DNA of 64,000 bases from sequence record PX393110.1. One strand, 5' to 3'. The DNA is from a phage. Below, in pieces: positions 2,385 to 63,559 of the stretch (the first letter of the stretch is position 1; each line of letters starts with the position of its first letter). The position numbers and the translations under genes are program-made. Below the pieces are notes generated by a model. It saw only the letters and a list, made by a program, of their open reading frames with translations, made no database searches and was not told the DNA's origin.

Positions 2385-5150
2385 CTACTCTTCCATAAAC
2401 GTAGTTACGTTATTGGAAAGGTAGGCACCGATTTTAGTATTATATCTCTGGAACGTAGGTACATGAGTAACCAGGATGATGTGATTAACCGGAATGTCCT
2501 GGAGAGCATCGATAGCTATGTCCAGAGTATTCACATCCAGATTCTTCAACGACTCATCCAGAATCAGGCATCCAGCACCTTTACTAAGGCTAATCAGCTT
2601 ACCGATGAACAGTACGTCCACCAGGTTCTGCTGACCACCAGAGAGATCAGAATACGGAATCAGGAACTCACCGACTTTGTATTGAACATCAAAGTCAATC
2701 TTGATATTTCCATTAGCCTGTTCACGAACGGTAGAGATGACCATATCACCACCAGTCATCATCGCAGCCACTTCCTTAAAGATAGAAGCAGTTACGTCAC
2801 CGCTATTAGTGAACAGATTCTGATACTCCACCAGCTTCTGATACTTAGGCTGAAGAGTAGCCAGCTCAGAGTTAGCCTTATCCAGCTTCGTCTGAGCATC
2901 GTCCATACGAGACTTAAGACTACGAAGAGTAGCCATAGCTCCGATAGTGGAGTTAATCTCGATAAGCTCTTGTTCCAGCTTAGCGACTTCCTCTTCCAGA
3001 ACTTGCACGGAGGAATAGGACTTAGTCTTATTCTTAAGCACTTCCACATCGCTATTGACGGTATGAATCTTCTGGCGAAGAGTGGCCACATCGTTTAGCA
3101 GACCGGACTTACGACGGAGTTCGACTAATTCGTTATTCTTAAGAGCCAGCTTCTGTCGGATTTCATCAGACTTAGGAGCCTTACTTATCTCAGCTTCCAC
3201 AGCATCCAACTTAGACACAGATACAGATCCCTGTGTCTCGAGCTCATCCATCTTACTTCTGATAGAGCTCTGTACCTGCTTAATGTCCTCTTCCTTAAGA
3301 GACTGTTTACAGGTAGGACAGGTAGTGGGAATATTCCGCATTTCTGTCTCTAACTTAGTCAACTCCTGTTCCAGACGAGTCAACTCCTTAGTTAGAGATT
3401 CGCTCTGGTTATGGAGCGAACGAATATTCCCTTCTACTTCCGACACTTCGGCATCTAGCAGAGTAATTTCGCCACGGACATTAGCGAGTGCGGAGTTAAC
3501 CTCTTCTTCGCTAAAGTCTATATTGAACGCAGCCAGCGAGTCTTCCAACATCTGAAGACTCTGTAGCTTACTATCCAAATTACCCAGCTCCCGGATCTTC
3601 TGACGAATATCATCAATCTGAGGAAGGATTCGGGATTTAGCCTCTTCCAGATCACTTACGTCCTTGAGTCTGGAGAAATCGTGATCCTCCATCGTCTTAA
3701 GGACTTCTTCCTGAGCAGTAACCTGAGTCTGGAGATTACCGATCTCTACCTTACAGTTCTTAGCCGAGGCCTTTGCGACAGCTTCGTACTGGTTAATTAC
3801 GGTAAGACCAAGCATCTTCGTTATCAGGTTGATACGCTCGTTGAATCCGAACTGGCTAAGGAACGGAGGACTGTTCTGGGAGCGGTACAGAAGATCGAAG
3901 TGTTCGAGGAATGGCAGCATCTCCCAGAGCTTAGCTTCACGCTCACGAATACTTCCGCCATCCATCTCATCGCCATCAATCCAGACTCGGAACGTCTGAC
4001 CACCAGCCCAATGGCGACTGATCAGGAATTCACGACCACCATACTCCAGCATCACTTCTACCAGAAGATGGTCCTGACCGAGTCTCACCACGTTACGAGG
4101 ACTGTCGCTACCAGTTAAGCAGTAGTTCAGAGCTCGTAACAGCGAGGATTTACCATTACCGGTTTCGCCGTAGAGATAAGTCAGACCTTTCTTAAAGTCC
4201 AGCTCCAACTTATCGATGCTACGGAAGTTCTCTACCTTAATGCTATTTAAGGTAAAGTTGAGGTCGAATACCGACTCGGAACGATCAACGTGGGTAGACA
4301 TCTCATCATGGATATCTTTAAGACCTTTAGCCCGAACGACTTTATCGATAACTTCTTCGACATCAATAGACTTAACCGAGATGCGTGAAGCATCCATCAT
4401 CTGAGCTCGTTCACGAACTACCAGATGTGGGTAATTGTCCAATCCGACAGGAACCTCATCTTCCCAGTACATCTTTAAGTACTTAAAGGAATCAGACTCT
4501 ACCGGAACCCGCTGCCAGGAAAGATCTTTGAGATCCAGCAGTACCAGACTGCCTTCCTGACTATCACCCATCCCATGAGGAATAGGCACGTTCACCGAGT
4601 GAGTATGACCGATGCTGATAGGACGGTGGATGTCACCCGCAAATCCCAGATCGTACTTAGTATCGTCGAACTCCTGACCGAACATCGAGGACAGGGTAAT
4701 ATGGCCGATTAGGACATCTACTTTATCCTGGATGAAGCTAAAGTCCTGAGTCGGACGCCAGTCGCTGAAGGCGACCTTACGGCCACCTAAGTTCAGGATC
4801 TTACCATCGACATACTCCGCCTTACCAGCCAGGATCGGCACCAGCGAGTTCTGATAGTGATCAGCATCTACCGATTTGGAGTTAATGTCGTGGTTACCCA
4901 GAATGTAGTAAATCTCGGAGAACTGCTCACCGAGGATGTCCATAAACTGGGAAGTAGCATGTGCAATCTTAGGCTCGTGCTGAGCCTTATGCACCAAGTC
5001 GCCAGCGATAGATAGGCAAGTAACTTTATGTTCCTTACCCATCTCCACCATACGATGAGCCAATCTGATAAACTGCTTTAGCCGAAACCCTTCCGAGTTA
5101 TGTTGCTGAAACTCATGAATATGAATATCAGCAGCAATTAACATTTTCAT
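2385..5150 (-). CDS. Fused Mre11/SbcD-like nuclease and Rad50/SbcC-like ATPase (single 921-aa polypeptide)
   Basis: N-terminal calcineurin-like phosphoesterase motifs (DIHIHE, GDLVH, GNHD, GDIHRP, GHTH); then Walker A GETGNGKSS, a long heptad-rich region with a CPTC zinc-hook, ABC signature LSGGQQ, Walker B CLILDE and H-loop VTHV. RBS GGAG before the ATG at 5150. Confidence 0.75.
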   Translation of the reverse strand: MKMLIAADIHIHEFQQHNSEGFRLKQFIRLAHRMVEMGKEHKVTCLSIAGDLVHKAQHEPKIAHATSQFMDILGEQFSEIYYILGNHDINSKSVDADHYQNSLVPILAGKAEYVDGKILNLGGRKVAFSDWRPTQDFSFIQDKVDVLIGHITLSSMFGQEFDDTKYDLGFAGDIHRPISIGHTHSVNVPIPHGMGDSQEGSLVLLDLKDLSWQRVPVESDSFKYLKMYWEDEVPVGLDNYPHLVVRERAQMMDASRISVKSIDVEEVIDKVVRAKGLKDIHDEMSTHVDRSESVFDLNFTLNSIKVENFRSIDKLELDFKKGLTYLYGETGNGKSSLLRALNYCLTGSDSPRNVVRLGQDHLLVEVMLEYGGREFLISRHWAGGQTFRVWIDGDEMDGGSIREREAKLWEMLPFLEHFDLLYRSQNSPPFLSQFGFNERINLITKMLGLTVINQYEAVAKASAKNCKVEIGNLQTQVTAQEEVLKTMEDHDFSRLKDVSDLEEAKSRILPQIDDIRQKIRELGNLDSKLQSLQMLEDSLAAFNIDFSEEEVNSALANVRGEITLLDAEVSEVEGNIRSLHNQSESLTKELTRLEQELTKLETEMRNIPTTCPTCKQSLKEEDIKQVQSSIRSKMDELETQGSVSVSKLDAVEAEISKAPKSDEIRQKLALKNNELVELRRKSGLLNDVATLRQKIHTVNSDVEVLKNKTKSYSSVQVLEEEVAKLEQELIEINSTIGAMATLRSLKSRMDDAQTKLDKANSELATLQPKYQKLVEYQNLFTNSGDVTASIFKEVAAMMTGGDMVISTVREQANGNIKIDFDVQYKVGEFLIPYSDLSGGQQNLVDVLFIGKLISLSKGAGCLILDESLKNLDVNTLDIAIDALQDIPVNHIILVTHVPTFQRYNTKIGAYLSNNVTTFMEE

Positions 5151-6020: not shown

Positions 6021-6047
6021 CAAAAATAAAGGGACCGAAGTCCCTTT
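6021..6047 (-). terminator. Rho-independent terminator (AAAGGGAC-loop-GTCCCTTT)
   Basis: Hairpin 6028-6047 with a 4-nt loop; T-run on the minus strand; directly 3' of the 6061-7095 gene. Confidence 0.6.
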
Positions 6048-6060
6048 ATTAGTTAATTAA

Positions 6061-14184: not shown

Positions 14185-14817
14185 AGTTACCTCTATGTTA
14201 TTTATTTTAAACTGGATAGGGACCTAATAGAGTAAATTAGTAAATAAATACTTATTAGTTACCTCTTACCTATGCTAAGGGAAGCGTACTCGAGGAGTAC
14301 AGAGGCTTAGCGAAAGAGCGGAGTAACACCTTTATCCCAATTAGTCAAAGTAGAGAGCGAAGGAGTCGCGCCCGCTTGAGGCGGCGCGACCTCCGCTTCA
14401 CCAATCCTACCGGATGAGCGCCTGCGACCACCCGAGCCTACCCCTGCATCACTCTCTAAAGCCACTTCGGGCTTTACCTCGTTCTGCTACGCGATACGCA
14501 GGCGATAGCTACACTAAGTCCCCTGGAGATGGCTAGTAAGCATCCGCTACCAGTCATATCCAACCTAACATTGGCGAAGCCAGGGACTAGGCACTCCGCG
14601 CCAATAAGCTACATTAGGATTTATGTCCGTATTCGAAGATAGGCCGATCGGTGAGACTATGCATTCATCTCTGCTCAACCAGGAAGCGCCGATTAGGGTA
14701 AATACCCAAACTACCTTCTTAATGTCACTCCTCCCAGACCGCTTCGGGACTTAGCTTAAGTCATATCCGAATAATCTGGCATCTACGACGGACCGTAGTG
14801 TATGGAGCGTACTGCAA

Positions 14818-14978: not shown

Positions 14979-15054
14979 TGGTGGCCCATACTGGTTTCGA
15001 ACCAGTGACCAATCGATTATGAGTCGACTGCTCTCACCACTGAGCTAATGGGCC
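14979..15054 (-). tRNA. tRNA-Met (anticodon CAT; elongator-type, or Ile2 if lysidinylated), CCA encoded
   Basis: Hand-folded cloverleaf: acceptor GGCCCAT/ATGGGCC, D-stem GCTC/GAGC, anticodon stem GTCGA/TCGAT, loop CTCATAA, T-stem ACTGG/CCAGT, T-loop TTCGAAA, 3' ACCA; 76 nt. Confidence 0.85.
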
Positions 15055-15199
15055 GAACTGGTCGGGACCGTGGCCCACACTAGAGGATTTGCCAAACTCC
15101 CCATTATCATGGCCTAAGCCATCCAGACAGCCGTGACTACCCTGCTCCGGTACATGTGATAATGGGGACGTATCCAAAAATGTGGAGATCCCGTTAAGG

Positions 15200-15276
15200 T
15201 GGTACTCCCTACAGGATTCGAACCTGTGACCAATAGCTTAGAAGGCTACTGCTCTATCCAGCTGAGCTAAGGGAGC
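15200..15276 (-). tRNA. tRNA-Arg (anticodon TCT), CCA encoded
   Basis: Hand-folded cloverleaf: acceptor GCTCCCT/AGGGAGT (G1-U72), D-stem GCTC/GAGC, anticodon stem GTAGC/GCTAT, loop CTTCTAA, T-stem ACAGG/CCTGT, T-loop TTCGAAT; 77 nt. Confidence 0.85.
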
Positions 15277-15457
15277 TTATTAATTCTTCTACCTGCTTAA
15301 CAGATTTATTCATGCCTGTTCCGTGACACTCCCCGCAGACCCAAGTCCGACAGAAGATATCACCAGGCTCAGCATCGTCACACTCTCCTAAACCTCCACA
15401 TTCTGGACATTTAGCTTCATTAACAATACTTCTTAGCTTATGAAAAGTAGTTTCCAT
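15254..15457 (-). CDS. Small zinc-ribbon protein (CPEC...CGEC)
   Basis: 67 aa with two CxxC pairs; RBS GGAGGA before the ATG at 15457; the 3' end overlaps the tRNA-Arg 5' end by 23 nt. Confidence 0.45.
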   Translation of the reverse strand: METTFHKLRSIVNEAKCPECGGLGECDDAEPGDIFCRTWVCGECHGTGMNKSVKQVEELISSLSSAG

Positions 15458-15473
15458 AAATCCTCCATTTTAG

Positions 15474-15541
15474 GATGACCTCTTAGCTTACCATCGCGAA
15501 AAGCTACATGGAGTGTAGTTAACGTGAACTAAGAGGTCATC
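15474..15541 (-). promoter_or_regulatory. Structured element closed by a 13-bp perfect inverted repeat
   Basis: GATGACCTCTTAG (15474-15486) pairs with CTAAGAGGTCATC (15529-15541); the enclosed 42 nt hold two further hairpins (TAGCTT/AAGCTA and CTACA/TGTAG). Lies directly 5' of the RBS of the zinc-ribbon gene. Confidence 0.4.
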
Positions 15542-15547
15542 ATAAAA

Positions 15548-15649
15548 TCAGCTATTGAAAGCTAATATAATACTGTCCCAACCATCTACATAAATTGCGT
15601 TGGCTACATATAATACGAAGAATATAGCAACGACTATTGGATTAATCAT
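15548..15649 (-). CDS. Possible small hydrophobic membrane peptide (33 aa)
   Basis: Track ORF 15548-15757 has an Arg-rich N-terminus with no RBS; the internal ATG at 15649 has AGGAGAG 7 nt upstream and encodes MINPIVVAIFFVLYVANAIYV..., a single predicted TM helix. Confidence 0.3.
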   Translation of the reverse strand: MINPIVVAIFFVLYVANAIYVDGWDSIILAFNS

Positions 15650-15989
15650 CGTACTCTCCTGAGAAATATTATCCTGCTTACTGTTACAGGGACGCCGTTC
15701 GTCGCGCCAGATTACCAATCGGCGATTAAGCCGATCTCGCCAACCGCGTAACGCCATTGGCTGGTATCACATAGGCTTGTAGCCCTCAGTCAACCTGTCC
15801 TGAGGAGGTAGGAAGAGCCATACGCCAAATCCGGGATTGATAGTCCCATATAGCTTCCTACTTTGCCATTCTCGTATGGCCTCGGATACGACTGTCTCTG
15901 GGTAAGGAGTCCCGACAGCTGATACGGTTTAGTTTATTTTTAATTTGAGTCCCACTCATACCTTACAGACTCAAGCACTGCAGACCACC

Positions 15990-16019
15990 GAAAAACCGAC
16001 TGGTACGCTAGCAGTCGGT
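15990..16019 (-). terminator. Rho-independent terminator about 30 nt downstream of promoter-like motif copy 6
   Basis: Stem ACCGACTG/CAGTCGGT (8 bp) with a 9-nt loop, followed on the minus strand by TTTTT. Confidence 0.5.
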
Positions 16020-16049
16020 CCCACGGATCCCATGAACAACTTATGACAA

Positions 16050-16080
16050 TTTAACAGCCTTTCGAGTCATCAAAAGAGTG
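16050..16080 (-). promoter_or_regulatory. Conserved promoter-like motif, copy 6
   Basis: TTTAACAGCCTTTCGAGTCATCAAAAGAGTG; no ORF of 60 aa or more within about 290 nt downstream. Confidence 0.5.
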
Positions 16081-16231
16081 TTAAGTTGCCCGCTCCCTAT
16101 CACCGAGCACTGTGATGATGGGAAATAGGGAGCGAAACGATTCCTAAGTTTTATCTTCTTCTCTAAGTGATTAACCGTTACATACGATATACCTTCTTAG
16201 TTAGATAAGCCGGAATTGGCACTTCGAACAC

Positions 16232-16268: not shown

Positions 16269-16811
16269 TTAGACGCTCGCCTCAGACACTTTAACAGCCT
16301 TTGGAACTGTAAAAAGAGCGGGTTTATACCATTCGGGAGTGCGGTAGAAAGTAATGGTACGACCCTCTTTCTCCCAGATATAGTATTTATCGTTCAGGTA
16401 GTTACGATACTTCTCGTAAACTGTTTCGCCAGGAGCACCTGCCACACACGCATAAGGTGTCATGTCAGTCTCCGGACCGACCTTCAAGTTCTTAGGCAGT
16501 TTGCTGAGTCGCGACAGAATAATATCTGTGGCATGCATACGACCGGTACGTTCATAGAACAGGATACACAGATAGTTAGCCAGCTCTTTAACGAAGTTGT
16601 AGTTACCGGAAGATTCACGGACCCAGCGTGCTGATGGGTGATTTACGTGAGTCTGTTTGTAAATACCCTCGATAGCTTGATCGCCATCCAGAACATGATG
16701 AGCTGTGGACAACAGCTGAGCACATTCGATAATCATTTTATTCTGGTGCATTGGCATACAATGGTCCATAGCACATTCTAACGCATCTTCGTGAGTACGG
16801 AAAATATTCAC
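16269..16811 (-). CDS. hypothetical protein (180 aa; GTG start)
   Basis: ORF track; AGGAG 8 nt upstream of the GTG at 16811. Confidence 0.5.
   Translation of the reverse strand: MNIFRTHEDALECAMDHCMPMHQNKMIIECAQLLSTAHHVLDGDQAIEGIYKQTHVNHPSARWVRESSGNYNFVKELANYLCILFYERTGRMHATDIILSRLSKLPKNLKVGPETDMTPYACVAGAPGETVYEKYRNYLNDKYYIWEKEGRTITFYRTPEWYKPALFTVPKAVKVSEASV
16290..16321 (-). promoter_or_regulatory. Conserved promoter-like motif, copy 8 (overlaps the 3' end of the upstream CDS)
   Basis: TTTAACAGCCTTTGGAACTGTAAAAAGAGCGG; the last codons of the 16269-16811 ORF read through it. Confidence 0.45.
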
Positions 16812-17093: not shown

Positions 17094-17429
17094 TCATAAG
17101 AACATTTTGACAAGATGTTTAGTACCGTTGATAGCAGCTTTCTTAGCAGCCGACTTAACATGAGCTTTAACTTTCTTATGTAAAGTCTTGGACTTAGCCT
17201 TATTTTTAAGGAGTCGTCCGGCAGCTTTAGCCCTACGCTTGATTCTGTTAGCTGATTCGGAAATAGCAATACCTTCCTCATCAGTAACATCATCAACATT
17301 AGACGAAGCTATCATCAGTAACTGATCATCGGTTAAACCAGCTGCTATGGTTTTGACGAATATTCCTTCATCGACATCACCAACAGCATTAAGGAGATCC
17401 TGTGATTTTGACATAATCTTCCCATACAT
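17094..17429 (-). CDS. hypothetical protein (111 aa, lysine-rich C-terminus)
   Basis: ORF track; AAGGAAG 7 nt upstream of the ATG at 17429. Confidence 0.45.
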   Translation of the reverse strand: MYGKIMSKSQDLLNAVGDVDEGIFVKTIAAGLTDDQLLMIASSNVDDVTDEEGIAISESANRIKRRAKAAGRLLKNKAKSKTLHKKVKAHVKSAAKKAAINGTKHLVKMFL

Positions 17430-18274: not shown

Positions 18275-18420
18275 TTTTTATTCAAAAAGAGTGTTAAAAT
18301 TAGGTTTTTGAGCTTTACAGGACGCCCCTGCGCTCTAAAGATAGGCCTCAAAAGGGTGTTTTTGTGAAGGTTGTCCGAGCCCCGTCCGGGACGTCTTCAA
18401 CTATAAACAGGAGAAATACA

Positions 18421-25630: not shown

Positions 25631-26341
25631 ATGTATAAGGTAACTAATAAGTCCGAGTACACTGTTCAAGCTAACCTGTCCGCAGACGGTCCGGTAAGCA
25701 TCGCTCCTAAAGAGAGTCTGACCATTCGTAACCCGTCTCGCGATTTCGTTAAAGAGATCGGTCGCGTATCTAACCTGCTTTCCTATACGGAAGTAAGTGG
25801 TGATGCGTCTGGCGATCAGACCGATAAAGACGAAGTGGTCGCAGCTGAGCCTGAACATCCGAACTCTCTGGACAAAGAGCCAGGTACTGTTATCCAGGGT
25901 ACTGCTCTGACCAAAGAAGAAATTAACACTGCTGCTGAGCGCTCTGATCATAAGATCAATGACAAAGTGCCCGATACTGCGGTAGTTGGCGCTAACCAGG
26001 ATGCTGCTGCACCTAAAACTGGTGGCGAGTCTAACGTCGCTCCTAAAGAAGTGACCGACGCAGAATTAAATAACGCTGGCGCTGCTGCTGGTGGTGAAGA
26101 TCAGGGTGCTGGTAATGCGGAAGATGCTTCTGCAGATAAATCCGACTCTGGCATCCGTCAGTTTACCGGTGAAGAACCCACCAAATCTGAAGAAGATGGC
26201 GAAGGTGAGCAGTACACTCGCGAAGAGCTGGAATCTACTCACTGGGCCACCGTTAAGAGCATCGCGGAATCTAACGGTATTGATTACACCAACAAAGGTG
26301 AAGCGATCACCGCTATTCTGGATGCTAAAGTAACCAAGTAA
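25631..26341 (+). CDS. Acidic low-complexity structural protein, possibly capsid-associated
   Basis: 236 aa; Ala/Asp/Glu-rich; C-terminal ELESTHWATVKSIAESNGIDYTNKGEAITAIL resembles a small helical Rho-N/SAP-like module. Confidence 0.35.
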   Translation: MYKVTNKSEYTVQANLSADGPVSIAPKESLTIRNPSRDFVKEIGRVSNLLSYTEVSGDASGDQTDKDEVVAAEPEHPNSLDKEPGTVIQGTALTKEEINTAAERSDHKINDKVPDTAVVGANQDAAAPKTGGESNVAPKEVTDAELNNAGAAAGGEDQGAGNAEDASADKSDSGIRQFTGEEPTKSEEDGEGEQYTREELESTHWATVKSIAESNGIDYTNKGEAITAILDAKVTK

Positions 26342-26374
26342 TAGCTAAAATTCAACGAGCCTACGGAGCATAGT

Positions 26375-26911
26375 ATGGATATTCGCAGTTTAGTTCTCCA
26401 GGGAACAGATACTCTCAGGAAGAATCAATATCCTACTGGTAAAGTAGGCTCGTTCGATTTTAACTATGTTATGAGAAATAAACAGCTCATCGTTAAATCT
26501 CAGGCACGCCCTTCCAGTGGTGAATCGTATTCGGCATATCAGTCCCAGATTGTATTCTCTGGAGTAGGTTATTCTGATGTTCCGTCTCCTGATTTCCCTC
26601 TGACGTACAATTCTCCTAACGGGAAGATTTATCTTCAGAAGCCTACCACTCGGAATACTGTCCAGATCAGATGTTCTTGTAAGGACGATTATTTCATGTG
26701 GCAGTACCCTAATAAGTCTAAGGGTGCTCTCCTGGGTAGATTTAAGCCGTATGTACGTAAAACAACGGATCGTCCTCCTAGAAACCCAGGCAACGTACCA
26801 GGAATGTGTAAACATGCTCTGGCTCTCGTGAAGAATCTGTTTTCTATGGGAGTTCTCCAGCCTGATTCTCAGGTACAAGAGTACTTATCAAGACCAACTA
26901 GGAGTATATAA
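26375..26911 (+). CDS. hypothetical structural protein (178 aa)
   Basis: ORF track; RBS; head-to-tail packing with neighbours. Confidence 0.45.
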   Translation: MDIRSLVLQGTDTLRKNQYPTGKVGSFDFNYVMRNKQLIVKSQARPSSGESYSAYQSQIVFSGVGYSDVPSPDFPLTYNSPNGKIYLQKPTTRNTVQIRCSCKDDYFMWQYPNKSKGALLGRFKPYVRKTTDRPPRNPGNVPGMCKHALALVKNLFSMGVLQPDSQVQEYLSRPTRSI

Positions 26912-58551: not shown

Positions 58552-58884
58552 ATGCGCGAGAGGGAAGAGTCTGAGTTCGGTGGACACCAACTCGATAGGC
58601 TAGCGAGACTTGAATCTAACCAGAAGTTTCAGGGAGTAATCCTTGATCAACTTATGGAGTCTTCTCGTAAGCAGACGGAGATATTAGCGGATATCCGTGA
58701 GCTAGTCGTTGCACAGAATTTCATGTCTAAGAAGATTTCTGACCTTGAAGATGAGCAGGATGATCTAAGGAAGGAGATTAAGGAAGTAAATGACAAGATT
58801 AAATTCTGGAGTGGTGCGTTAGCAATTATTAGTGTACTGGTAGGATTGTTTAACGACGCCATCATCGGCATCTTTAAGCACTAA
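58552..58884 (+). CDS. Coiled-coil protein with C-terminal transmembrane anchor (lysis-associated?)
   Basis: 110 aa; heptad-rich N-terminal region, C-terminal hydrophobic segment WSGALAIISVLVGLF; last gene of the plus-strand block. Confidence 0.35.
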   Translation: MREREESEFGGHQLDRLARLESNQKFQGVILDQLMESSRKQTEILADIRELVVAQNFMSKKISDLEDEQDDLRKEIKEVNDKIKFWSGALAIISVLVGLFNDAIIGIFKH

Positions 58885-58890
58885 ATAAAT

Positions 58891-58925
58891 GGGACTCACT
58901 CGTGATAGAGTGAGTCCCATTTTTG
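58891..58925. terminator. Bidirectional rho-independent terminator at the convergent junction
   Basis: 11-bp stem GGGACTCACTC / GAGTGAGTCCC with a 7-nt loop; TTTTT on the plus side and an A-rich run on the other side. Confidence 0.7.
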
Positions 58926-58936
58926 TGTAGATTAAT

Positions 58937-62546: not shown

Positions 62547-62856
62547 AATCTTCGTCAGGTAATGAATTAACGAAGTCAGCTATAACTTGAGCATGACATG
62601 GTAACGGTAAGCAGGAGCACCCTAAAGTCTTACCCTTAAGAGTCCGTAAGTAGGAGATGCTTATGTGGCCATCTTTTACTTGCTGGTGGAACCATAGTCT
62701 GTATTTCGCGATGGCTAATGTTCGGGAACCTACGTTAATAGCGTTAGGTAAATCTTTATGGCTCCACTTATTCCCGAATATAGTACCTCTCCCAACATAT
62801 AAATCGTAGTTAGGATTGGTACGTATATTAACCACCCGACAAAGCTTACTCTCCAT
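62533..62856 (-). CDS. Possible DUF4326-like protein (start uncertain: ATG 62856 or TTG 62883)
   Basis: YDLYVGRG...GNKW...LGCSCLPLPCHAQVI pattern recalled from DUF4326-type phage proteins; the 3' end overlaps promoter-like motif copy 11. Confidence 0.3.
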   Translation of the reverse strand: MESKLCRVVNIRTNPNYDLYVGRGTIFGNKWSHKDLPNAINVGSRTLAIAKYRLWFHQQVKDGHISISYLRTLKGKTLGCSCLPLPCHAQVIADFVNSLPDEDSALS

Positions 62857-63559
62857 CTTCCACAGAGTTACCCTGCATAGCAATCATGGTATTCACCTCG
62901 TGCTCCAGATCCTGTAACTCTTTTACACGATTGATGGTGCGAACCCAAGTCTTAGCTTCCAGCATCGCATCGAACAATGCATGGTGATCAGACATAGACT
63001 CGTGCTGGCTACTCAGTTCTTCTTTAATCATGCGACGATCATCGAATGAGATCAGCTGCAGACTAGCCAGAGTGCGGTAATCTCGATTCATCCAGTGTAG
63101 GAACGGGGTCTTACGTCCTTTAGCCTTAAAGTACCAATCCAGGAATCCCTGGTCGAACTCTGGTGCGTTACCGATGAAGTTCAACATCTGGCAACCAGGA
63201 TCCTGTAGTACCTTAGCTACGTACTCTTCGATGATATCCAGAGCTTCGTCAACAGATACTGGATTAGCATATGCAGCATCACGGACGGGTTTCGGGAGAG
63301 TGTTGAGCCATTCAACTACGTTAGGGTCAGACTTCATACCCAGAGCCAGCGACTCTTCTCGATCAATAGTGAAGTAGACGTGGGAGTAGTGATCAGGACC
63401 AACCGTCACCATACCTACAGATAGAACTACCCCAGGCTCTTTAAAATCGAGATACTCGGTCTCGATGTCAATTGCGCAGTGGTAGGAGTCGTGATATGAC
63501 AGGAATCGGTTAAACAGTTTATTCGGAGCCAGATGGTGTGGCATCATCTTAGTAGACAT
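62846..63559 (-). CDS. DEDDh-type 3'-5' exonuclease (DnaQ/RNase T-like)
   Basis: Exo I motif AIDIETE near the N-terminus and Exo III-type HHALFDA near the C-terminus; RBS AAGGATAA. Confidence 0.55.
   Translation of the reverse strand: MSTKMMPHHLAPNKLFNRFLSYHDSYHCAIDIETEYLDFKEPGVVLSVGMVTVGPDHYSHVYFTIDREESLALGMKSDPNVVEWLNTLPKPVRDAAYANPVSVDEALDIIEEYVAKVLQDPGCQMLNFIGNAPEFDQGFLDWYFKAKGRKTPFLHWMNRDYRTLASLQLISFDDRRMIKEELSSQHESMSDHHALFDAMLEAKTWVRTINRVKELQDLEHEVNTMIAMQGNSVEDGE

Follow-up and report, generated by a model that had tools for sequence, protein, structure and literature searches.

A conserved hairpin beside the tRNA genes of a phage: a possible intercistronic processing or stability element

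The closest described counterparts of the element considered here, hairpin A, are the RNase III hairpins of the T7 early region (R1.1) and of the lambda sib and N-leader regions, which are irregular helices of about 20 bp lying between the cistrons of multi-gene phage transcripts in an E. coli host. For RNase III of E. coli, the idealised substrate has a length of about 22 bp (PMC6212723, PMC3867540), and a mismatch in the helix can confine cleavage to one strand, so that a 3' hairpin remains and stabilises the RNA (PMC3867540, PMC6212723). Hairpin A is likewise intercistronic, irregular and about 20 bp in length, and it is likewise interrupted by a mismatch of the kind that can leave a protective 3' hairpin (PMC3867540). 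It differs from these systems in being topped by a conserved, branched interior of 42 nt rather than by a simple loop, in adjoining tRNA genes instead of having mRNAs alone on its two sides, and in being a putative substrate.

Two further classes of structured RNA resemble it in part. Like the 3' stabiliser hairpins of bacterial and phage mRNAs, hairpin A is stable (about -33 kcal/mol) and begins at the stop codon of the upstream ORF, and it would become a 3' end once RNase P had cut the tRNA that follows. Stabilisers are usually simple stem-loops that need no conserved interior, whereas the interior of hairpin A is branched and invariant. The T4 RNAs rnaC (species 1) and rnaD (species 2) are likewise structured non-tRNA RNAs beside a tRNA-Arg(UCU) gene, with 5' and 3' ends that pair. 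The length of rnaC is 139 nt and that of hairpin A 68-82 nt; hairpin A lies upstream of the tRNA and shows no sequence similarity. It also lacks the tRNA-like T-arm (GGGUUCGAAUCCC) of rnaC, so that the resemblance is one of position only. A degenerate tRNA or T4 rnaC-like RNA was considered as a candidate in its own right and rejected, as there is no T-arm in 15467-15548 and neither ARAGORN nor the Rfam tRNA model gives a match there.

Intrinsic terminators share with hairpin A a strong hairpin downstream of a small ORF; hairpin A differs from them in having no U-tract and a loop region of 42 nt. The 3' flanks of the hairpin are CCUAAAAU on the minus strand and AUAAAAUC on the plus strand. Evident terminators of the phage represented by the window (the whole stretch of DNA analysed, 64,000 nt) are short-loop hairpins with T-runs, for example at 58874-58935 and 6025-6050. 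Termination was therefore rejected as a function: hairpin A is not among the terminators called by the scan, and a U-tract is missing from both strands (minus, CCUAAAAUGG; plus, AUAAAAUCAG).

Promoter-early stem-loop (PeSL) cassettes flank mobile small genes in T4-type phages, where they occur in multiple copies and combine a terminator-like hairpin with a promoter. Hairpin A is similar in bordering a slot in which the small genes and tRNAs turn over between related phages, and dissimilar in being single-copy, the repeated promoter-like motif of this phage being a separate sequence. A MITE was rejected on the basis of the single copy and the lack of a target-site duplication, and a repeat of the REP/BIME-like, MITE-like or PeSL-like kind on the basis of the single copy and the absence of a match in the E. 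coli genomes searched.

Gene order at the locus and in its relatives

The features surrounding hairpin A in the window are the following.

15474-15541, minus strand: hairpin A, the core element, a 13-bp perfect closing stem around a 42-nt structured interior, defined by its exact arms, its fold and its retention in relatives
15467-15548, minus strand: extended helix, in which a 6-bp lower stem (AUUUUA/UAAAAU) is joined to the core across a U.C mismatch
15502-15520, minus strand: apical hairpin with a CTACA/TGTAG core, found in predicted folds and without change in any relative
15548-15649, minus strand: ORF for a 33-aa hydrophobic peptide (MINPIVVAIFFVLYVANAIYVDGWDSIILAFNS), located inside a 69-aa ORF call, with a UGA stop codon that abuts hairpin A
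15254-15457, minus strand: zinc-ribbon ORF of 67 aa with two CxxCxGxG motifs, its last 23 nt and stop codon inside tRNA-Arg
15200-15276, minus strand: tRNA-Arg(UCU), the first tRNA downstream of hairpin A, from ARAGORN and Rfam
14979-15054, minus strand: tRNA-Met, from the tRNA search
16047-16081, minus strand: copy of the promoter-like motif GCTCTTTTG-N6-TCGAAAGGCTGTTAAAnTG, the putative driver of the transcript that contains hairpin A
1714, 7159, 12366, 14821, 16053, 16235, 16293, 16900, 18246, 62518 and 63593, minus sense: copies of the promoter-like motif, which precede leftward genes
18348-18360, plus strand: inverted copy of the promoter-like motif, at the divergent junction near 18350

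Both tRNAs, every flanking ORF and the copies of the promoter-like motif in this region are on the minus strand, along which the order is the small membrane-peptide ORF, hairpin A, the zinc-ribbon ORF and tRNA-Arg. The sequence-only reading had described a 13-bp perfect inverted repeat in an intergenic gap of 90 nt, and both observations are correct: GATGACCTCTTAG (15474-15486) is the exact reverse complement of CTAAGAGGTCATC (15529-15541), from which it is separated by 42 nt, and the gap is bounded by the small ORF's stop codon (15548-15550) and the zinc-ribbon ATG (15455-15457).

The 33-aa peptide ORF has a good ribosome-binding site and is called as a 33-aa gene in the Logan contig L158. 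It is probably a real gene, because the substitutions found in the phage vB_EcoM_IME392 are conservative; in the phage EP_H11, the ORF is largely deleted and a startless remnant is left. The combination of a long structured leader and a small membrane peptide recalls type I toxins, but no conserved antisense promoter was found.

The motif GCTCTTTTG-N6-TCGAAAGGCTGTTAAAnTG, also written CCGCTCTTTTG-N6-TC(G/C)AAAGGCTGTTAAAnTG, has 11 same-orientation copies in the leftward gene block, with 1.3 expected for its 13-mer core. It resembles a promoter of the extended -10 type to which a conserved upstream box has been added, may function as such, and possibly depends on a phage factor. The copies at 16053 and 14821 bracket the tRNA region. 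Several Logan contigs end exactly inside the motif. The transcript that contains hairpin A would begin at the putative promoter near 16050 and comprise a leader of about 375 nt, the 33-aa ORF, hairpin A, 7 nt, the GGAGG and zinc-ribbon ORF, tRNA-Arg, a 145-nt rod-like spacer and tRNA-Met.

Only two deposited relatives exist, the Escherichia phages vB_EcoM_IME392 (L001) and EP_H11 (L002), with about 86-88% identity to the window; IME392 is described as genetically unique (Hu et al. 2021, as cited in PMC12210895). Four Logan contigs (L158, L159, L164 and L165), which were reached via neighbouring proteins in a protein database, also carry hairpin A and add no variation. Three arrangements are found in these sequences.

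Arrangement 1 (window and L158): hairpin A, zinc-ribbon ORF, tRNA-Arg
Arrangement 2 (IME392, L159, L164 and L165): hairpin A with one loop base different, 10 nt, tRNA-Arg, with no zinc-ribbon gene
Arrangement 3 (EP_H11): 5' arm and interior retained, 3' arm replaced (GCAGGGUGCACAU), abutting tRNA-Gly(UCC)

Neither IME392 nor EP_H11 has the approximately 300 bp at 17100-17400 (ORF region 17094-17429), which represent another small-gene insertion or deletion in the leftward block.

Searches of larger collections added no further relatives. A 20-mer from hairpin A has no match in GTDB genomes or IMG/VR, and the hairpin has none among 5,426 E. coli genomes. Scans of IMG/VR with a 16-mer and a 14-mer gave chance matches only, and a 20-mer from the conserved block beside the hairpin gave 28 chance matches in GC-rich JGI metagenome contigs and no relatives. 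When IMG/VR was approached via the neighbouring proteins, only distant DenV homologues in unrelated contexts were recovered. The 180-aa protein encoded at 16269-16811 on the minus strand has many homologues with PF03013 (pyrimidine-dimer DNA glycosylase, T4 endonuclease V family); the window protein itself has no Pfam match at E 0.01.

Structure and conservation of hairpin A

The complementarity of the arms reaches outward from the perfect core, giving 25-nt arms that match at 88% of positions (15467-15491 and 15524-15548) and a full helix of about 20 bp, which consists of six A/U pairs, one U.C mismatch and the 13 perfect pairs. The 5' strand of the lower stem starts with the last base of the upstream stop codon, and the last base of its 3' strand precedes the GGAGG. 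The apical hairpin has 5 bp and a CUCCA loop when read as the minus strand, and 8 bp, including two G.U pairs, and a GGA loop when read as the plus strand. Two stems had initially been proposed inside the repeat. CTACA/TGTAG is present in the predicted folds and TAGCTT/AAGCTA is not; the two cannot both form together with the closing stem, because TAGCTT (15484-15489) uses the TAG of that stem and AAGCTA (15501-15506) overlaps CTACA (15504-15508) by 3 nt.

Over about 103-106 nt, the minus strand folds at -32.9 kcal/mol (z -4.3 to -4.7) and the plus strand at -34.1 kcal/mol (z -5.2), and none of 200 shuffles folds as well as hairpin A. The plus strand thus folds equally well or slightly better, and three inner wobble pairs are G.U on that strand only, appearing as A.C mismatches on the minus strand (P = 0.125). 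Folding therefore does not discriminate between the strands of hairpin A; the orientation of the genes and of the putative promoters would settle the strand as minus.

The repeat had also been considered unlikely to arise by chance. This is true of one given 90-nt gap, for which the probability is about 3e-5 by our own estimate (about 2000 arm placements x 4^-13). At the scale of the whole window the inverted repeat is only moderately unusual, as a perfect repeat of at least 13 bp with a loop of up to 100 nt is present in 15 of 200 dinucleotide shuffles of the 64-kb sequence (7.5%). Hairpin A is taken as real because it is conserved in relatives and not because of these statistics, which by themselves are no more than suggestive. 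A second long-range inverted repeat, with 24-nt arms that match at 88% and are 79 nt apart, is found among the structural genes at 26341-26364 and 26444-26467, on either side of the point where the ORF 26375-26911 starts.

No second copy of hairpin A was detected in the window with up to 2 mismatches allowed, and the hairpin occupies one place in each relative genome. In a search of Rfam 15 at the gathering threshold, the two tRNAs alone pass and hairpin A is assigned to no family. Relaxing the threshold to E values of up to 10 gives chance matches to miRNA-precursor-like families on the hairpin, which score 22.9 bits where the cut-off is 100 bits.

The 5' arm and interior form an island of conservation. 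In 50-nt windows they are 100% identical to IME392 and 96% identical to EP_H11, and the flanks are 36-70% identical or unalignable. The hairpin is identical in L158, IME392, L159 and L164 apart from a 1-nt loop indel, and the only variation inside it is two single-base indels, both at predicted loop positions. The 42-nt interior is conserved as strongly as the stem. In IME392, the helix comprises an 8-bp lower stem with G.U pairs, a mismatch and 14 bp. Of the 13 core pairs, 8 are retained in EP_H11, including two as G.U, and the lower stem there is lengthened to 11 bp with flanking sequence of a different origin; on the minus strand this version folds weakly (z -1.4). As EP_H11 lacks five of the 13 core pairs and its fold is not significant, the perfect stem is dispensable in at least one viable phage. 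About 20 stacked positions are nevertheless kept in all three genome types, via A/U-rich sequence that is able to pair by chance.

A comparison with relatives for compensatory changes had been suggested as a check on the hairpin. It supports conservation of the element and provides no covariation: compensatory changes are found at 0 of 35 predicted pairs in relatives that hold little variation, the stem being invariant in six of seven sequences and partly destroyed in EP_H11.

Structured modules and ORF-free stretches around the tRNA genes

Hairpin A is one of a set of closed-stem modules interleaved with tRNAs, which are accompanied by two longer stretches.

15055-15199, minus strand: module B, the whole spacer between tRNA-Arg and tRNA-Met, a rod-like fold with about 47 pairs, organised around a perfect inverted repeat of 12 bp (15098-15109 and 15157-15168)
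L001 3309-3408 and the equivalent in EP_H11 (L002): module C, about 100 nt, closed by TTGAGCGATAGG/CCTATCGCTCAA, absent from the window
L001 3548-3695: module D, about 150 nt, with a closing arm of about 22 bp, found in IME392-type genomes only and absent from the window
15673-16046, minus strand: leader stretch of about 375 nt between the promoter-like motif and the small peptide ORF, conserved and with no credible ORF
14194-14815, minus strand: ORF-free stretch (about 570-620 nt) that follows a promoter-like motif, with no credible ORF

Module B contains two compensatory pairs among relatives, and in the window it folds at -56.6 kcal/mol on the minus strand versus -45.0 kcal/mol on the plus strand. 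Module C shows a T-A to C-G compensatory change in EP_H11. Modules C and D exhibit clean presence or absence between genomes.

The leader stretch has six compensatory pairs, and one of its helices is wholly rewritten between lineages (GUAGGAAG/CUUCCUAC versus AGAUC/GAUCU). In L158, a peripheral domain is swapped for a longer, unrelated insert inside a conserved GAUACC/GGUAAUC closing helix. Near the 5' end of the leader there is a hairpin followed by a U-run (CCGACUG...CAGUCGGUUUUU). The stretch at 14194-14815 is 92-100% identical to IME392 and EP_H11, above the level of the flanking coding DNA; its consensus fold has 186 pairs, three of them compensatory, and a fold z-score of -1.2. The z-scores of the two stretches are only -1.2 to -1.6, and neither has a match in Rfam or in other phage records. 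Both are candidates for large phage noncoding RNAs beside tRNAs.

The relatives also contain tRNA-like pieces that ARAGORN does not call, at about 3085-3225 in L001 and at about 3085-3255 and 3925-4020 in L002. One has a T-arm and a CCA end (CCUCGGUUCGACUCCGAGGAAUCACCA), and another has a long variable arm. A tRNA-like gene with an oversized anticodon region is present in EP_H11.

Possible roles of hairpin A

The preferred reading, to which we assign a probability of roughly 0.4, is that hairpin A may serve as an intercistronic RNase III-type processing hairpin or as a hairpin that protects a 3' end. It would act in cis as a structured RNA module of a polycistronic minus-strand transcript. The helix of about 20 bp, capped by the conserved branched interior, would present host RNase III with a double-stranded site spanning about two helical turns; in addition, or as an alternative, it may obstruct 3'-to-5' exonucleases after RNase P has excised the downstream tRNA. 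In either case the upstream RNA would be parted from the tRNA and cassette portion, and its 3' end would be set by the hairpin. An RNase III processing site was among the roles offered by the sequence-only reading, and a predicted helix of about 20-23 positions is compatible with one.

The position of the hairpin is consistent with such a role. It always starts at or next to the end of the small ORF or its remnant and immediately 5' of whatever follows, which makes it a boundary element. The next feature on its 3' side is tRNA-Arg at a distance of 10 nt in IME392-type genomes, tRNA-Gly in EP_H11 and the zinc-ribbon ORF in the window. A coaxial helix of the length expected for RNase III (about 20-22 bp) is present in the window and in IME392, and in EP_H11 only with bulges and mismatches. 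The minus-strand orientation, the island of conservation, the boundary position, the helix length, the restriction of indels to loops and the proximity of module B would all fit processing or stabilisation. Against it stand the lack of compensatory pairs, the damage to the core in EP_H11 and fold energies that do not identify a strand; moreover, a generic cleavage or barrier site would not need a conserved interior.

No phage-encoded RNase III was found among the 18 window ORFs scanned. The sole RNase-like domain in that scan is the following.

62846-63559, minus strand: ORF of 237 aa with an Rv2179c-like 3'-5' exoribonuclease domain (PF16473, E 1e-18)

Its product could be an exonuclease that trims RNA 3' ends, or it could act on DNA.

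In the main rival reading, the conserved interior would itself be the functional part, presented by the stem, of a small RNA or protein-binding RNA module of about 70-90 nt that is released from the tRNA-region precursor and has a sequence-specific role. We regard this as a tentative alternative, less likely than the preferred reading. The interior and 5' arm do not vary even in EP_H11, which has lost the upstream ORF and the 3' arm, other closed-stem modules lie between the tRNAs (B in all genomes, C and D in relatives), and in T4 the tRNA-Arg(UCU) gene is immediately followed by those for two stable RNAs. However, hairpin A belongs to no Rfam family even at E values of up to 10, it lacks the tRNA-like T-arm of T4 rnaC, and a conserved complementary partner in the same transcript was not found beyond chance 7-mers. 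A broader version, in which hairpin A would be a discrete, sequence-specific RNA of an undescribed tRNA-linked noncoding-RNA island made up of the two large RNAs and the modules of 70-150 nt, is somewhat more doubtful.

It is unlikely that hairpin A lacks a present function and is either a palindrome in decay or a scar left by recombination where it borders a variable cassette slot. All three genome types do diverge immediately 3' of the hairpin, with the EP_H11 junction falling inside the 3' arm, and both the frequency of 13-bp perfect repeats in shuffled windows and the lack of covariation are compatible with a scar. Decay would not account for 60 nt free of substitutions between flanks of 36-70% identity, in genomes that differ by about 13% on average, nor for the different flanking sequences that extend the helix in each genome type.

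An element acting at the level of DNA is improbable to a similar degree. The two 13-bp arms would then be half-sites for a protein, as in the DNA palindrome that had been suggested at the outset, or the sequence would form a hairpin or cruciform for recombination or replication, marking a cassette boundary. The perfect Watson-Crick complementarity of the arms, the equal folding of both strands and the location of hairpin A exactly at a mosaic junction are in keeping with this. The separation of the arms by 42 bp is, however, unlike that of operator palindromes. In addition, the hairpin occurs once per genome, EP_H11 is missing one half-site, no nuclease or recombinase gene is nearby, and there are no target-site duplications.

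Control of the hydrophobic peptide by a plus-strand RNA or hairpin that is antisense to the 3' end of its gene, in the manner of a type I toxin-antitoxin system, is very unlikely. In its favour, a long structured leader precedes the upstream ORF, which encodes a hydrophobic peptide of 30-33 aa, the plus strand folds slightly better and has three G.U pairs where the minus strand has A.C, and a weak sigma-70-like site (TTAACG-18-TAAAAT) is found on the plus strand at 15519-15548. Promoter-like matches of this kind number 3, against 4.7 in shuffles, and a stronger plus-strand site at 15585-15614 is not kept in IME392. Moreover, the known genes here are all on the minus strand, and the orientation of the three wobble pairs has a P of 0.125.

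The role that fares worst is that of a translational operator or coupling device of the zinc-ribbon gene, which the sequence-only reading had implied and which now appears most improbable. That reading placed the element directly 5' of the zinc-ribbon ribosome-binding site; the position is correct, the core ending 7 nt 5' of the GGAGG on the minus strand, and the UGGAG of that site has its complement in the CUCCA of the apical loop. The functional link implied by the position is not supported, as the zinc-ribbon gene is found in the window and L158 only and is absent from IME392-type genomes and EP_H11, so that the element is kept without the gene in L001, L159, L164, L165 and L002. In addition, the Shine-Dalgarno sequence and AUG of the gene are unpaired in every predicted fold. 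Conversely, homologues of the protein, which are at most 60% identical, are mostly found in the tRNA regions of T5-like phages, and in phage STG2 the gene lies 17 nt after tRNA-Met with no hairpin. Because the gene and the hairpin occur apart, the gene is considered a mobile small cassette and not a partner of hairpin A. Bypass of the gene-60 kind, or coupling to the zinc-ribbon ORF, was also rejected; there is no matching landing codon, and the relatives have no downstream ORF.

The zinc-ribbon protein itself has a weak match to DnaJ_CXXCXGXG (E 0.0017, below the cut-off). The TAG stop codon of its gene sits in the D-loop of tRNA-Arg (overlap 15254-15276), and RNase P cleavage at the 5' end of the tRNA would consequently strip the stop codon from the zinc-ribbon mRNA. 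This overlap suggests either that the cassette junction is recent or that translation competes with processing of the tRNA.

Taken alone, hairpin A is of modest significance, as one more phage example of a long helix that would shape a mixed mRNA and tRNA transcript. It most likely belongs to a kind already known, the intercistronic processing or stability hairpin, and is new as a member only. The correction outweighs the element: the zinc-ribbon gene, a cassette inserted recently, is incidental to the hairpin, and experiments on that gene would miss the point. The better lead is the approximately 2 kb of well-conserved, almost ORF-free minus-strand sequence around the two tRNAs. If these stretches are stable RNAs, they would make the large structured RNAs that phages, for unexplained reasons, encode beside their tRNA genes newly tractable in a phage with E. 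coli as its host.
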